Shown piece after piece: positions 10,467-16,350 of a DNA stretch of 64,000 bases. A program made the translations under genes and the position numbers. The notes beneath the pieces are model-generated. The model did not search any database. It was not told the origin of the DNA and was given only the letters and a program-made list of their open reading frames with translations. Every line of letters starts with the position of its first letter. The stretch's first letter is position 1. This DNA comes from Escherichia phage NHEP1, in sequence record PQ511146.1. One strand, 5' to 3'.

Positions 10467-13400
10467 TTAGTGACAATCACCCCAGTTACGACCGCACAAG
10501 TATTCACCTGTGATCTGGAACGGAACGCCCATCATTTTAGAAGCCTGCCAGAAGCAATGCACCACCATTTCGCCCACAGGGCTCCAGATAAGCTCAAGCT
10601 TTCCGTCATCATTCAAGATAGGATCGTATACCGTATTTCCATCCTTGTCAACCACTTCGTTTCCGTCCTCATCTTTGCGTGCCTTTTTGTACTTATGACC
10701 GTCGAACACATGAAGTTTAGCCTCTTGTTGGGCTTTAAATGTTTCCAGCTCTTCAATTGTGTCGAAGGTGTATACGGTTTTATACTTAGGTGTGTCAGGC
10801 ACTTGAAGCTGATATTCGTCATGGTAATAGATAATACGACGAACACCCTCATCATACCATCCACGCTTCACCATCTGGTGGTGCATGAGGATTCCGACCA
10901 AGTCGCACAACGATGCACCGCCATTTTGCTGATATGCATTAAGCAAAGAGTGTTTAGAGCGGGTCCAAATGGCATGCCCGTCAAAAGAGTAGATAAATTT
11001 CTTACCTGTTGCTTCCCAGAATTTCTCCAGATCCTCTTTACGCCCCTTAAGGCCCGGGTTGGCATCCCAGAGAGCATCAATTACTCTCTGTCCAAGTTCT
11101 GGAGAGATATCTAGCATATCTGCAACTTTATCTTTTTGTGCCCCGTACATAACCCCATATGTGACAGGCTTACCATCGTTACGGGAAATCTCCTTGCCTG
11201 CTACAGAAGAGTAAGCTTTGGCGTTATTACAGTTACCGCACACTGCCACTTTACCATTCCTTCTCACAATGATTGCTCCAGAAGGGACGGTAACGCAATA
11301 AACCAAAGAACCGCTCACCTCGACAGACTCTTTAGATAGTGTCAGCAACCCTGCTCTCTGTTTGCTACCAATCGTGATTCTGTGCTGTACGGAACGACCT
11401 TTTTTGTGAATCGCCACCGTATTATTCCGTAAACCACACTGAGTAGCCAGCGCAGACACAACCTCTACAGATTTCTTCCTGCACCCGGCCTGAGAGTAGT
11501 AGGCAACTTTTCCACCTTCGGAAGATACCCACCCGTCCCAGTTAGATAAAGAAGCTATAAACAGGTTTTTAGATTCTTTATCAAGGTCCATCAGGTTGTA
11601 GGTGAAATCCTTATTGCTGTCCAAAAACTCAAATACCCAGGACGGAACGTGGAATTGGAACCTTCTCGCCAGTAAGCCCCCTTTTGTGGTTTTCCCGCTC
11701 TGCTCTACATAACTAAGGCTTAGAGCAGAAAAAGTATCTAAAAGCGTTGCAACTTTTCTGCCCTTCCCGACCTGAATCCTGCACACGATGCTGCCGTCCT
11801 TATTTGTATGCAAGTGCCCATCATCGTGAATAGCAATAAGCAAATTAACCTGGGCAGGAGATAAGGTTGTATTCCCATAAAACTCTGCCGCATGGATAAA
11901 CCTTCTTCCTGAATTAGACCCTTTACCTGCTTTCAGGTCTTTTGCCAAATCTTCAAACAATTTATTGCTTCTGTGATCCACGGTCAGCATCCTGTGTTGA
12001 TCTGTAACCATAAAATCCACACTGCTGTTGTGGAAATGATACATATCCCCACAATAACTACGCTTAACGTAATTTAATGGAGTAACAAGGTTCATCGACG
12101 AGGTGTTGTGATCGTACTGGAACACCTGTGTTCCCGGATCAAGATCTTCAAACCTCACCCACCCTTTCTCCGTGAGAATTTGTGTATCTCCTGAATAACA
12201 GTGTGCATCGCCGTTACTTACAACATCATAATACAGACCGTTGTCAAACTCAAAGGCACCCCAGGCCCCGATGAGCTGCTCTAAGTTGGACCCGTCAATA
12301 CCGATCTCAAAGTATCCTGGAGGAACACCCCACAGACTACGCATCTCTTTACCCATAACCACTTTAGGAGATGGTTTAGGCATGTTTGCACAAATACTAT
12401 GTTTCTGTCTGGAAGTGTTTGTTAATCCAGAACTTTTAGCAGGAAGCTTGTGGTCAATCTTCAAACGTGGATGATTAAGAAGACCAGTATCAACCTTATC
12501 TTCCTTGATTGGATCAAGGACCGATCTGCGGTTTCGCAATGATAACCACAAAACGATATCTTTAGCCATCTCTCCGTTCAATTTTTCAAGATTCGGGCAC
12601 AGGTGTCCAAACGTATCTTTCAGTTGCGGAGAAGTAATAAGCGCTCTGGCTTTTCTACGTATCTTCCCAAACACTTCCTTTTTAATCCTTTCTGAGTTAG
12701 GGAAGCTTCGGAACTTATGCACAGTTGTCTGGAACTTGGCATCAGTTTTGTTCCAGAAGTTGATAATTAGATCACAATACTCTGACTCCAAAAGCTCGTC
12801 CATATATGCATATACTCGTGCATCAACATCTGCATCAGGTAAAGCTTTCTTCTTGCTGTCTTTAGTTACATCTTTAGTTCTCCACATTGTTGGGAGCCAA
12901 CCAGCACTGATCAGGTATCGCTTGATGTCGTCCTGATTGCTGATTTTCATAGGTATCTTGCAGTCAGGCATTCGCTTCTGCTGTAGGTCACTTATCGCCT
13001 GATCCATCAGCTCTTTAGGTAAAGGGTGTGGTGTAGAAGTTCCTTTGATATACCCCCTCAAGAAATCAGCCATCTTATCGGGGTCTTTACAGCCCATCTC
13101 TTCACACCATTTTATCCCCATCTTACTTACATCCCCTGTGGAGGTAAATGCTCGCTTAGGAGGAGCTTTGAACTCTAAAGCACTCATGTCCACAGGGTAG
13201 CCAAGCTTGTCTTTTAACCATTTCCAACCATTATTGGAGATTGTCCCATCTTGGTTAAACGGCTTTTCAGGGAACTTAGGCCGCTGAGACATTGATAACT
13301 CTTTTAAAGGAAGTTGTGGTTCAACACGATCAGCGATCTCTTTCATCCACGCATCGCAACGGTCACGTAAAGCAATAGCCCCATCTATGTCGAAATACAC

Positions 13401-14213
13401 CCCCTGTCGAGCCTGCAGCTCCATCAGGAAGTGCTGTAACATGCCTCGGCGTAATGCGTTCTTCCAGGTGATCTTCTTGAAGCCTTTCGGCTTCTCTTTG
13501 GCAGGATCGTACATAAAGTTCTGCATGTCAGATTTGCCGTAGAATACACCTTTTGATTCCGCTACCAACTCCTTCCAGAGCAACTCCTGGATGATAACGT
13601 CCTCGAACACACGATCCACATACTTCCACAGTGGAAGCTCACGCCAGTCATCGATTTGAACTTTCTGGTTACCAAGGGCATAGCCCCATGCCATAAGGCC
13701 ATGAGGCCCAACAGGCTGCATTTTCTTGGTAACTGGATTGAATACTGCGTCCGGACAACCTTTTGGCAAAGGGCGGTCAGGCCACAAGATTCGGCTCATC
13801 GCTAACGTATCAAACAGATTAACCGGGTGGTCGTTGATAGTCCCCATGCATTTAGGATCACGGAACATATCAAAATGAATACCGGATAATCTTTCCATCA
13901 GCATAAAGTCGTAACTGTAGCAGTTATGACAGTTCAAAGCCGTAGGTGACCAGTCTGAATTGCCTGTAAGCCAACCTTCCAACTCTGAAAAATCTGCTAT
14001 GCGAGCCTCAAAATCTGTATAAAGGGTCTTCTTTGCCAGAATGAAGTTCTTAGCTTTCTCCACATCCTCTTCAGAGTAGTGTGTGCGGTCATTTAGAGGA
14101 AGGAACAGCATAAAACGGTTCTTATTCAGCTCTTTAAACAAACCGCAGTGATAATAAAGATCTGGGTCTTCCAGCAGGCCAGAGGCCTCAAAATCGAACG
14201 ACCACATGCTCAT
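10467..14213 (-). CDS. family A DNA polymerase (3'-5' exo + pol) interrupted by an intein
   Basis: Exo I FDFEASGL; motif A IGIDGSNLEQL; motif B KPVTYGVMYG; motif C YYHDEY; AAGGAG SD; 1248-aa precursor. Confidence 0.9.
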   Translation of the reverse strand: MSMWSFDFEASGLLEDPDLYYHCGLFKELNKNRFMLFLPLNDRTHYSEEDVEKAKNFILAKKTLYTDFEARIADFSELEGWLTGNSDWSPTALNCHNCYSYDFMLMERLSGIHFDMFRDPKCMGTINDHPVNLFDTLAMSRILWPDRPLPKGCPDAVFNPVTKKMQPVGPHGLMAWGYALGNQKVQIDDWRELPLWKYVDRVFEDVIIQELLWKELVAESKGVFYGKSDMQNFMYDPAKEKPKGFKKITWKNALRRGMLQHFLMELQARQGVYFDIDGAIALRDRCDAWMKEIADRVEPQLPLKELSMSQRPKFPEKPFNQDGTISNNGWKWLKDKLGYPVDMSALEFKAPPKRAFTSTGDVSKMGIKWCEEMGCKDPDKMADFLRGYIKGTSTPHPLPKELMDQAISDLQQKRMPDCKIPMKISNQDDIKRYLISAGWLPTMWRTKDVTKDSKKKALPDADVDARVYAYMDELLESEYCDLIINFWNKTDAKFQTTVHKFRSFPNSERIKKEVFGKIRRKARALITSPQLKDTFGHLCPNLEKLNGEMAKDIVLWLSLRNRRSVLDPIKEDKVDTGLLNHPRLKIDHKLPAKSSGLTNTSRQKHSICANMPKPSPKVVMGKEMRSLWGVPPGYFEIGIDGSNLEQLIGAWGAFEFDNGLYYDVVSNGDAHCYSGDTQILTEKGWVRFEDLDPGTQVFQYDHNTSSMNLVTPLNYVKRSYCGDMYHFHNSSVDFMVTDQHRMLTVDHRSNKLFEDLAKDLKAGKGSNSGRRFIHAAEFYGNTTLSPAQVNLLIAIHDDGHLHTNKDGSIVCRIQVGKGRKVATLLDTFSALSLSYVEQSGKTTKGGLLARRFQFHVPSWVFEFLDSNKDFTYNLMDLDKESKNLFIASLSNWDGWVSSEGGKVAYYSQAGCRKKSVEVVSALATQCGLRNNTVAIHKKGRSVQHRITIGSKQRAGLLTLSKESVEVSGSLVYCVTVPSGAIIVRRNGKVAVCGNCNNAKAYSSVAGKEISRNDGKPVTYGVMYGAQKDKVADMLDISPELGQRVIDALWDANPGLKGRKEDLEKFWEATGKKFIYSFDGHAIWTRSKHSLLNAYQQNGGASLCDLVGILMHHQMVKRGWYDEGVRRIIYYHDEYQLQVPDTPKYKTVYTFDTIEELETFKAQQEAKLHVFDGHKYKKARKDEDGNEVVDKDGNTVYDPILNDDGKLELIWSPVGEMVVHCFWQASKMMGVPFQITGEYLCGRNWGDCH
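11232..12200 (-). other. intein (about 323 aa) within DNA polymerase, with LAGLIDADG-like endonuclease insert
   Basis: N-terminal CYSGDTQIL after extein ...GDAH; block B TDQH; block F VYCVTV; C-terminal ...VCGN followed by +1 Cys; LLIAIHDDGH and LFIASLSNWDGW resemble LAGLIDADG motifs. Confidence 0.7.
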
Positions 14214-14271: not shown

Positions 14272-16350
14272 TTAAAAAGGTGTTTCGTCGTCTTCAAAAC
14301 CAGGAACGTGGTTAGAGGACGGATCATCATACTGAAGGTCTTCCTGTGTGTCAACAGGGTTAACAGCAGGGGTTATAACCTTATCAGCCACAACCTTGCC
14401 CACAGGTGTTTCTACAACTGCATGCTCCTGATCCTCAAACATAGCCTGAGGTCTCCAAACAACCTCCCCACCTTCCCCGTCTGTAAACATCTGCATTTCT
14501 TTGTCCCAGTACCAGTTGCTGGCATCATAGAACTTGCCTGTGTGGGGATCCATAACTAGAGTGTCCGCAATACCTAAGGTTTTTGCTGGGCGGTTTTTAA
14601 GACCTACCAGTCGGACACGTCCACGGGAACGATCCACCATCTCCTCTGCCTCTACCCCGACAACCACCCAGCTAAGTTGCTCCAATCCGGCACTACCGCG
14701 AAGGTTCTCTTTTCGTACAGGGTACCAGAAAGGTAACGGATTTCCATCCTTATCCTTCGGAGGTACAATCTCTGTGCGCTTCAGGTGAGCAATCACCAAG
14801 ATAAACACATTAAACTGCTTACAGAACGCGGCTAGTTGAGTCATAGCCATGTCAAGCTCTTTACGCTCATCCTTAACATTAAGCCCTGAAATCACCATAG
14901 ACAGGTGATCCAGCACAATGTAACGGCAGTGATACAGGCACACCATTTGTTTAAGCTTAGTGATCAGCTCATCTACAGGGATGGAGCCGAAATGCTTGAA
15001 CACTTTGATTTTTCCGGCCTTGGCCCAAGATTGATGAATCTCAGCGTGCTCCTGATCGGTCAGGAACTGACTGGGGTCTTCAACAAACTCTTTAACATCA
15101 AACCCCAGCTGGTTAGCGTACAGAGAGTTGATTGCTTCCTCAGGATCCTCTTCAAGGTGAATCAGGCACAGGCGATCATCCTCTTCATAATCATCAGCTT
15201 TAGGGCATGTTGGATCCATCAAGTATCTTGCAATGCAATGTTCCAGCTTCTTGGCTACAGTTGTTTTACCACCGCCAGACGGGCCTGTCAGCATCATCAA
15301 GGTGCCTTTGTGGAGTCCTTTCAGCATCTTCTGCAGTTTAGGGAACTCTGCACTGATATCTACGCCATTGGAAGTCTTCTTACGAAGAGATTCAATGGAG
15401 AAGTCTTCTAAATCAGATACAGCATCAGGCACATATTTGACTGGGTGACGGAACATGTTGACAATATCTTCCAGCTTTTTAGCCTTCAGCATGTCACGAA
15501 TATCTTTTACACCATCAGGGTCGTTTACCTCACCCGGGTATTCCACGTGGTAAACGTTATCAGCCATCAAAAATGCTGCGATATTATGTGTGGCTTCAAC
15601 ACCTTTAATAACGTGTTTTTGCTTCTCTACCTCGTTAGCTGCATCGTTGTCCATTGCAAGGACCACTGTTCCGTAGCTACGGATAAATTTCTCATTGTTC
15701 GCAAAAGTGTCTACGGCGTTTGCACACCCACAGTTAATTCCAACAAAAGGCAGGCATGGTTTTCCTGCCAGATCCCCGCCGTTGATAACTGCATCAATCC
15801 CATCCTGGACTTCTTTAGCCCACTGCTTCACCTTCGCTGGGGCTTTAGCATTGGTGAGAATTCCTTTTACTTGTATCTGATATGCAGCCTGCCACGCTGC
15901 AATAACATCTCCTTCTCCCTCACAAACGTTAATCTGCTTACGGTTGTTGGAGGATGCACACAGCTTTTGACCAAACATCTGGGAGTTGGCCTTTACTATG
16001 CCAACAACCGAGAAATGGCCCCTTTGCTCTTTAGGGATTGTCCAGTCACGCTTTTTAAAGCCAGATAGATTACCGTAGCGGTCATAATACGGAAAGTAGG
16101 TGGCAGTAACAGTTACACCATCCTCTTGGGATAGCGATGATCGTACACCAAAATATTGTGCAGCCATCAGTCCAATATTTTGTTGTGGAACAGGGACAAT
16201 TTTAGTGTTTTCTAAAACAGTCTCCACAGTTTCAACTTCTTTTTCATCACGATAGTCTCGTTTCACACTCCCCCCACTTTTATACTTAGTTGCTTTCGGG
16301 TTTGGCTCACCGAAACGGTTGTATGCAGATGCCATGAATTTACTGCCCAT
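14272..16350 (-). CDS. T7 gp4-like DNA primase-helicase
   Basis: TOPRIM-like VCEGEGDVIAAW; DnaB-type Walker A GPSGGGKTT and Walker B IVLDHL; acidic C-terminus ending DDETPF; AAGGAGAAG SD; no Cys4 zinc-binding domain seen. Confidence 0.85.
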   Translation of the reverse strand: MGSKFMASAYNRFGEPNPKATKYKSGGSVKRDYRDEKEVETVETVLENTKIVPVPQQNIGLMAAQYFGVRSSLSQEDGVTVTATYFPYYDRYGNLSGFKKRDWTIPKEQRGHFSVVGIVKANSQMFGQKLCASSNNRKQINVCEGEGDVIAAWQAAYQIQVKGILTNAKAPAKVKQWAKEVQDGIDAVINGGDLAGKPCLPFVGINCGCANAVDTFANNEKFIRSYGTVVLAMDNDAANEVEKQKHVIKGVEATHNIAAFLMADNVYHVEYPGEVNDPDGVKDIRDMLKAKKLEDIVNMFRHPVKYVPDAVSDLEDFSIESLRKKTSNGVDISAEFPKLQKMLKGLHKGTLMMLTGPSGGGKTTVAKKLEHCIARYLMDPTCPKADDYEEDDRLCLIHLEEDPEEAINSLYANQLGFDVKEFVEDPSQFLTDQEHAEIHQSWAKAGKIKVFKHFGSIPVDELITKLKQMVCLYHCRYIVLDHLSMVISGLNVKDERKELDMAMTQLAAFCKQFNVFILVIAHLKRTEIVPPKDKDGNPLPFWYPVRKENLRGSAGLEQLSWVVVGVEAEEMVDRSRGRVRLVGLKNRPAKTLGIADTLVMDPHTGKFYDASNWYWDKEMQMFTDGEGGEVVWRPQAMFEDQEHAVVETPVGKVVADKVITPAVNPVDTQEDLQYDDPSSNHVPGFEDDETPF

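Follow-up and report, generated by a model that had tools for sequence, protein, structure and literature searches.

A LAGLIDADG intein in the DNA polymerase gene of Escherichia phage NHEP1 and the signature of its recent transfer

The polymerase gene and its insert

The DNA polymerase gene in a 64,000-nucleotide (nt) stretch of Escherichia phage NHEP1 (PQ511146.1; the whole stretch is referred to as the window) was compared with its relatives and was found to carry an intein. The gene occupies positions 10467..14213 of the window on the minus strand, where all of the polymerase features described below also lie, and its product, 1248 residues long in the list of open reading frames (ORFs), is a family A (T7-like) DNA polymerase precursor of the rV5-like Vequintavirus type. 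An earlier note, made from the sequence alone, had described a roughly 323-residue insertion in this ORF and read it as an intein. The insertion was found to be in frame and exactly 323 residues long (11232..12200, polymerase residues 672-994); it begins with Cys1, ends with Gly322-Asn323 and is followed by a cysteine at position +1, and it was delimited by its absence in relatives, by homology and by fold. It is very likely that this insert is a mobile, self-splicing LAGLIDADG intein situated in the fingers of a T7-like replicative polymerase, between the equivalents of T7 His506 and Thr507. All of the strings quoted in the note were located in the sequence, namely CYSGDTQIL, TDQH, LLIAIHDDGH, LFIASLSNWDGW, VYCVTV, and VCGN followed by Cys.

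The N-extein (12201..14213, polymerase residues 1-671) ends with ...NGDAH, is colinear with the intein-less polymerase of phage ECP2303 at 98.8% nt identity and contains motif A, IGIDGSNLE (12279-12305, residues 637-645), the aspartate of which corresponds to T7 D475 in the alignment with T7 gp5. The C-extein (10470..11231, residues 995-1248) begins with Cys+1 and was assigned by the T7 alignment and by its colinearity with intein-less polymerases; it contains motif B, DGKPVTYGVMYGAQ (11136-11177), and motif C, YYHDEYQ (10809-10829), both placed by the T7 alignment, and the stop codon follows at 10467-10469. The extein flanks matched PHROG families of phage DNA polymerases (E = 2.6e-134 and 3e-92). 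In a megablast search, the gene was matched by 118 records, which placed it in the genus Vequintavirus (rV5-like Escherichia phages); its nt identity to the polymerase genes of that genus was 92-98%. Sixteen of the matching records were named 'Campylobacter phage' and showed 80-99% nt identity to the coliphage polymerase gene, and the polymerase of Campylobacter phage C9 was 94% identical to the window polymerase at the protein level, which suggests that these records are mislabelled or contaminating rV5-like genomes.

Comparison with intein-free polymerases, a check proposed in the earlier note, revealed that the 969-nt insert was missing to the nucleotide in about 110 Vequintavirus polymerases, which span 2778 nt (3747 minus 969), and this speaks strongly against a conserved non-splicing domain. 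The intein-less records aligned over 73% of the window polymerase query, and the polymerases of ECP2303 (L001, the nearest) and EduardKellenberger (L006), each of 925 residues, were colinear with the window product once residues 672-994 were removed. The whole query was present in six GenBank records (Mangalyan, JEP1, 241Ecol014PP, YP-6, EPFV3-03/2025 and VB-EcoM-WM), and all of these are cultured phages that have no replicative polymerase other than the intein-bearing one. Overall, the intein occurred in 7 of about 120 alleles, and approximately 94% of the sequenced relatives were without it. It was annotated in none of the six GenBank records; in these genomes and in NHEP1 the gene is labelled 'DNA polymerase' or 'hypothetical protein', with a length inflated by 323 residues. 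A literature search for an intein in Vequintavirus or rV5 polymerases found no paper naming one. A chance ORF was ruled out by the full-length homology of the insert to inserts in unrelated phage proteins together with the presence/absence data.

The spliced extein sequence aligned with T7 gp5 (E = 2.4e-13) without a gap across the junction. In this alignment, IGIDGSNLE paired with T7 GIDASGLE, NGDAH|C with NGDIH506|T507, and DGKPVTYGVMYGA with the motif B O-helix, and YYHDE corresponded to motif C, so the insertion point is between the equivalents of His506 and Thr507. The note had placed the insert after the 'GDAH of motif A' and before motif B. The location between motifs A and B stands; the label does not, because GDAH aligns to T7 G-D-I-H506, the helix-N histidine motif approximately 30 residues downstream of motif A, which is IGIDGSNLE. 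In the T7 ternary complex, this histidine (His506) contacts the phosphates of the incoming deoxynucleoside triphosphate (dNTP), and by alignment the insert is located in the dNTP-binding fingers of the polymerase. Since a 323-residue domain at this site should block assembly of the fingers, an inactive precursor is plausible, and the unspliced protein can reasonably be expected to be inactive as a polymerase.

Domain structure and family of the intein

The intein consists of an N-terminal HINT half, an endonuclease domain and a C-terminal splicing part. The HINT half (intein residues 1-100, 11901..12200) was recognized from sub-threshold Hint_2 and intein_Nterm hits and a match to Protein Data Bank (PDB) entry 6zgq; it contains the Cys1 codon (12198-12200) and block B, T66-D-Q-H69-R70-M71, with TDQH at 11994-12005. 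The LAGLIDADG endonuclease domain (residues ~101-285, 11346..11900), which was assigned from a structural model, Foldseek comparisons and the Pfam matches of relatives, contains the first LAGLIDADG helix PAQVNLLIAIHDDGH with acid D127 (11814-11858) and the second, KESKNLFIASLSNWDGW, with acid D222 (11529-11579). The C-terminal part (residues 286-323, 11232..11345), assigned from conserved positions in 204 relatives and from its likeness to the AceL NrdHF intein, carries block F, LVYC302VTVPSGAIIVR (11262-11306), and block G, VAVC321-G322-N323 with Cys+1 (11229-11249).

In tblastn searches, full-length matches (residues 1-323) with 21-31% identity and E-values down to 5e-25 were found in 207 phage records, and the host proteins comprised the alpha and beta subunits of ribonucleotide reductase (RNR), NAMPT, PhoH, ThyX, primase/helicase, RtcB, nucleotidyltransferase, DNA methylase, RNA ligase and metallophosphoesterase. 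All 15 of the homologues that were aligned, from at least 12 host proteins, start with Cys, end with Gly-Asn and continue with Cys, Ser or Thr; residues C1, H69, D222, C302, R313, G322 and N323 were invariant in the alignment of the insert with these sequences. The insert alone also matched PHROGs of intein-containing PhoH, RNR and thymidylate-synthase proteins (2.6e-18, 1.5e-7 and 6.9e-6, respectively). A protein homologue search with the single intein sequence gave no match at 1e-5, and a family alignment used as the query gave matches. The best sequence match in the PDB was the AceL NrdHF intein 6zgq (1.8e-4 with the single sequence and 2.6e-10 with the family profile), and the profile matched the LAGLIDADG enzyme I-Tsp061I (2dch) weakly (0.033). 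When 16 full-length family members were compared with Pfam, LAGLIDADG_3 was found in five (best 6.5e-11) and Intein_splicing in two.

An AlphaFold2 model of the intein, which was built on a 39-sequence alignment, had a mean predicted local distance difference test score (pLDDT) of 91.2 and a predicted template modelling score (pTM) of 0.88. Secondary structure assignment with DSSP revealed HINT strands around two alpha-beta-beta-alpha-beta-beta units, in which helices 115-127 (...IHDD127-G) and 208-221 (...NWD222-G) form the first helix of each unit and end with Asp-Gly. Foldseek matched the model to TliVMA (4.7e-15), PI-SceI (1e-13), PI-PfuI (template modelling (TM) score 0.71) and PhoVMA, with 7qsu, 1vde and 1dq3 among the intein entries matched, to 6zgq (TM on target 0.78) and to I-DmoI (about 5e-7, TM on target about 0.6); the endonuclease domains of PI-SceI and PI-PfuI were also matched. 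The PI-SceI, PI-PfuI and Tli/Pho VMA inteins share with the window intein the combination of a HINT domain and a double-motif LAGLIDADG endonuclease (Foldseek 4.7e-15 to 7e-12, TM on query 0.6-0.7), whereas sequence identity is 10-14%, their hosts are archaeal or yeast, and PI-SceI contains an extra DNA-recognition region. These inteins have the canonical penultimate His and an Asp at position F:4. The endonuclease acids were conserved in 194 (D127) and 193 (D222) of 204 relatives, and the near-invariant Lys197 was intact. The model helices, the Foldseek matches and LAGLIDADG_3 in relatives thus bear out the earlier suggestion that the two LAGLIDADG-like segments mark an embedded homing endonuclease. 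Because of the Pfam matches of relatives, the PDB profile match, the predicted fold and the Foldseek results, the assignment of the insert as a HINT splicing domain joined to a LAGLIDADG endonuclease with two motifs is solid; presence/absence, family homology, the predicted fold and the T7 alignment likewise confirmed that an intein separates motif A of the polymerase from motif B.

A phmmer search of 1.84 billion representative proteins with the insert gave 7650 matches at E<=1e-3, of which 2116 reached E<=1e-10, so the family is very large. The same D-x-His site was occupied, at an identical insertion point and by inteins of the same family, in the metagenomic sequences P0046, P0053, P0051 and P0073, the polymerases of which are 75, 45, 42 and 24% identical to that of the window and the inteins 88, 37, 35 and 31% identical; the +1 residue in the last three is Thr, as in T7 (Thr507). 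Members of the family were also present at other polymerase sites in metagenomic proteins. In P0040, the intein is inserted two residues upstream and the LAGLIDADG motifs are lost, and in P0078, P0122 and P0161 it lies inside the PNLQN motif of family A polymerases, where those of P0122 and P0161 end with Gln, not Asn. The window intein is one allele of a long-lived, site-specific lineage, and it is typical and unannotated rather than new in kind.

Conservation was counted over 204 full-length members drawn from the best representative matches, a sample biased towards query-like sequences. Position 1 of block A (A:1) was Cys and B:10 was His in all 204, B:7 was Thr/Ser in 203, F:4 was Cys in 201, and G:5 was Thr/Ser/Cys in 186. 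B:12 was M, V or C in relatives and is Met71 in the window, and the representatives have an Asn end followed by Cys/Ser/Thr at +1, as in the window. The penultimate position, G:6, was Gly in 199/204 members and His in 1/204. The earlier note had remarked on a penultimate Gly instead of the usual His: Gly322 is indeed present, but it is not unusual here. It is normal for the family, because of the count above and because a Gly-bearing relative splices. Complete splicing in E. coli has been shown for the RDF intein of Bethlehem gp51, in which Gly is likewise penultimate, and the reaction became slower when the His was put back (Kelley et al. 2016; PMC5050341). The LilBib RDF intein (317 residues), which is the apparent Bethlehem counterpart as judged by the same host protein and intein length rather than by direct comparison, was matched over its full length by the family hidden Markov model (HMM) at 4.9e-40 (CSW...TANHRV...VWCLRVPNG...LTGN|S). 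Common to the mycobacteriophage RDF intein and the window intein are a LAGLIDADG endonuclease, Cys1, a TxxH-R block B, Cys F:4 and a T/C-G-N end. The two differ in insertion site and in host protein (a metallophosphoesterase RDF versus a family A polymerase) and are approximately 21% identical, and the RDF intein has Thr G:5 and Ser+1, whereas the window intein has Cys at both positions.

Recent transfer and neighbouring elements

The window gene was compared with eight alleles in a mosaic analysis. Its N- and C-exteins were 98.8% and 98.9% identical to those of intein-less ECP2303 and 93.6-96.7% and approximately 90% identical to those of the six intein-bearing alleles, while the intein itself was 99.1-99.8% identical to five of those six. 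A tract flanking the intein followed the intein rather than the surrounding gene: 12 nt upstream (12201-12212) and 48 nt downstream (11184-11231) of the intein showed 0/60 differences from five intein-bearing alleles and 24/60 from ECP2303. The intein and its linked flank, which move as a unit, span 11184..12212. Beyond the 60-nt tract, polymorphisms were unlinked to intein status. The tract was restricted to the six intein-bearing records among the 120 matching the region, and an intein-less polymerase with the intein-linked flank, a possible donor lineage, was found in none of these 120. Intein-less polymerases read ...GACGCGCAC|CAAAACAATGC... at the junction, and the ECP2303-type empty site is ...AACGGGGACGCGCAC|CAAAACAATGCTGAGGCATATAC.... 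The +1 codon (11229-11231) is Cys TGT in intein alleles and Gln CAA in the empty alleles (L001 and L006), and the equivalent residue in T7 and in distant same-site hosts is Thr. Since the linked flank includes the TGT codon, the splicing nucleophile arrives with the element, and the spliced enzyme would carry a Gln-to-Cys scar.

A second intein variant, of the VB-EcoM-WM type, diverged from the window intein by 12% at the nt level. Relative to this allele, the ratio of nonsynonymous to synonymous substitution rates (dN/dS) was 0.083 over the intein as a whole and 0.091 within its endonuclease part at a dS of 0.55, which argues that the nuclease is still under selection. P0045 (1132 residues, a metagenomic/representative sequence) combines an extein 99% identical to that of the window with a WM-type intein (92% amino acid identity), and the two intein variants have therefore been reshuffled across extein backgrounds. 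Taken from the allele comparison, these data indicate recent homing into an ECP2303-like polymerase with short co-conversion, the footprint expected of break-initiated gene conversion. The freed intein would be expected to cut intein-less polymerase alleles site-specifically during co-infection, and repair would then copy the intein and a short flank into the cut allele.

The intein-bearing polymerases share another interruption. All six of those in GenBank contain an insertion in motif C (YYH|DE, with the ORF ending YYHK*), which is located at L003:4884-5119 in EPFV3-03/2025, at about 4900-5733 in L002 and after locus nt 3986 in L022-L025. The insertion in EPFV3-03/2025 scored 64.7 bits as a group I intron (Rfam RF00028), and Mangalyan, WM and 241Ecol014PP have an annotated HNH ORF that lies in the insertion or directly follows it. 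In the window polymerase the intein is present and motif C is uninterrupted, with the empty intron site at about 10815-10820 (minus strand). Across the 64-kb window, no Rfam family was found at the gathering threshold and no tRNA gene was found by ARAGORN. In a paper on Pectobacterium phage CB7 (PMC7344957), related Certrevirus phages of the same subfamily (Vequintavirinae) are reported to have LAGLIDADG inteins in the helicase and in NrdA, and their DNA polymerase genes to hold group I introns associated with HNH endonucleases; no polymerase intein is reported there.

Two further observations concern related elements in other coliphages. The window primase/helicase gene (14272-16350, minus strand) has an empty site, ..RKENLRG|SAGLEQLSWV.., at which an intein of the same family is present in Escherichia phage 19-1-2 (Avunavirus; L019:601-1524), ..RKEDLRG|C...GN|SAALEQLSWV... 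The unrelated Escherichia phage PD06 (Justusliebigvirus; L004:1475-4789) encodes a 1104-residue family A polymerase annotated as hypothetical, which contains a different intein approximately 5 residues past motif A (residues ~577-821), recognizable by weak similarity to the window intein at both of its ends. PD06 and Epa24 had been considered as same-site carriers from tblastn matches starting at the junction and were both rejected, as the PD06 intein is a different one and Epa24 has none.

Splicing route and competing explanations

We propose that the gene is translated as a 1248-residue precursor from which the HINT domain would excise itself, joining ...GDAH to CNNAK... to give a 925-residue polymerase that would be colinear with intein-less homologues except for the junction Gln-to-Cys change. 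Splicing would proceed via Cys1 and/or the block F Cys302 with transfer to Cys+1, and Asn323 would cyclize without a penultimate His, probably aided by Arg70. Several observations weigh against reading the insert as an active mobile intein. The window insert scored below the Pfam threshold for Hint_2 (23.6 bits against a cut-off of 28.4) and below that for NCBIfam intein_Nterm (TIGR01445, 14.4 against 24.5), and it gave no match to Pfam LAGLIDADG at E<1; in the Hint/LAGLIDADG HMM search suggested in the earlier note, LAGLIDADG_3 and Intein_splicing were matched by some of the relatives and not by the window sequence. Residue 239 (11484-11486, minus strand), which belongs to an endonuclease-domain loop of low conservation, is a Gly private to the window, and Glu is found in 6/6 GenBank alleles, including the divergent WM. 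The penultimate His and block F:4 Asp typical of class 1 inteins are absent (Gly322 and Cys302). Endonuclease activity is itself deduced from conservation and mosaicism, and the segment could equally be carried from phage to phage by ordinary recombination during co-infection.

The residues of the splicing center combine features of two classes. From the class 1 set, Cys1, Thr66 and His69 are present, while Cys302 stands in place of Asp F:4 and Gly322 in place of His G:6. In the Trp-Cys-Thr triplet of class 3 (B:12, F:4 and G:5), the window has Met71, Cys302 and Cys321 and AceL NrdHF has M-C-T; class 3 inteins need no nucleophile at position 1 and usually lack one, and Cys1 is present here. 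The family as a whole keeps the class 1 nucleophile Cys1 plus the class 3 set (Cys F:4, Thr/Ser/Cys G:5, Gly G:6 and the block B His-Arg). The earlier note was silent on the conserved block F Cys and on the link to class 3. AceL NrdHF (6zgq), a naturally split intein, was proven by mutagenesis to be class 3: Cys124 at F:4 is the essential first nucleophile (C124A/S are dead), and G145H abolishes activity because it clashes with Arg69, which assists Asn cyclization (Hoffmann et al. 2020; PMC7891396). It has Ala1, a Ser/His/Arg/Met block B, Cys124 at F:4, a P128-G129 kink, no F:13 His and a T144-G145-N146 end. The window intein (T66, H69, R70, M71, C302, P306-S-G308 and C321-G322-N323, plus Cys1) has in common with it H-R-M at B:10-12, Cys F:4, the VP(x)G kink, the lack of an F:13 His and the penultimate Gly. 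In contrast, AceL NrdHF is split, has a separate GIY-YIG gene and resides in RNR beta, whereas the window intein is contiguous with an embedded LAGLIDADG endonuclease; with respect to the splicing residues, this nearest characterized relative differs essentially by Ala1.

In our judgement, a plain class 1-type entry via Cys1 has about an even chance, and what remains goes to a class 3 route or a two-thiol relay. The possibility that Cys302 attacks the N-terminal junction, in place of Cys1 or after it, to form a block F branched thioester from which the N-extein passes to Cys+1 is tentative. It is in keeping with the conservation of Cys F:4 (201/204), Thr/Ser/Cys G:5 (186/204) and Gly G:6 (199/204), and with the proven class 3 mechanism of AceL NrdHF, the closest solved relative by sequence, in which C124A/S and G145H are dead. 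However, Cys1 is retained in 204/204 relatives, which argues that it is needed, as opposed to Ala1 in AceL NrdHF; B:7 is a class 1-type Thr, B:12 is Met and not Trp, and family members (the RDF, NT and DNMT inteins) are treated as class 1 by Kelley et al. 2016 (PMC5050341). A search of the literature found no discussion of an intein clade with both Cys1 and Cys F:4. According to Beyer et al. 2020, class 3 is unlikely to have arisen directly from class 1 (PMC7664689), and a reading based on the clade with Cys1 plus the class 3 set, which seems rather doubtful to us, would answer this objection if it held.

The remaining explanations concern the endonuclease and the role of the insert. It is unlikely that the intein splices with an inactive or decaying endonuclease and owes its persistence, in place of homing, to vertical inheritance together with ordinary homologous recombination during co-infection. 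The support for the nuclease is indirect, the window has its private E239G change, and the P0040 polymerase intein without LAGLIDADG motifs demonstrates that decay does occur in the lineage; against this, both catalytic Asp residues and Lys197 are intact, dN/dS is 0.09 over a dS of 0.55, and the transferred segment is short and centered on the insertion site (-12..+48), as in break-initiated co-conversion. The earlier note had raised the idea of a regulatory checkpoint, for which we found no support: the sporadic occurrence (7 of ~120 alleles) and mosaic signature are those of a selfish homing element. A conditional switch, such as a redox-sensitive one acting through C1, C302, C321 and C+1 that delays polymerase activation, is improbable. 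The four cysteines in the splicing center would allow it, conditional splicing of other inteins is documented in the literature, and Kelley et al. 2016 speculated that variation of the penultimate residue tunes the splicing rate (PMC5050341), yet some 94% of sequenced relatives replicate without the intein, its distribution is patchy and mosaic, and tested relatives splice rapidly and completely. That the insert is a non-splicing accessory domain of the polymerase can practically be dismissed. The continuous reading frame agrees with it and nothing further does, whereas the insert is absent to the nucleotide in about 110 close homologues, shows end-to-end homology with insertions in over 12 unrelated proteins, has a HINT plus LAGLIDADG fold and would sit in the dNTP-binding fingers; this reading and the chance ORF were both rejected because of the presence/absence data.

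The basic picture, in which inteins are common in phage replication genes, is unchanged, and the evidence for recent homing is unusually clear for an otherwise ordinary, well-supported family member. Recognition of the intein corrects gene models and polymerase phylogenies, and the locus offers a clean natural case of intein homing in a lytic coliphage, in which the transferred unit is the intein and about 60 nt. As Vequintaviruses are easily grown and crossed, homing, co-conversion and competition with the motif C group I intron are measurable. For the question of class 1, class 3 or hybrid splicing, a coliphage representative of the clade with Cys1, Cys F:4 and Gly G:6 is also a convenient system, and a dual-nucleophile clade would bear on the argument against class 3 arising from class 1.

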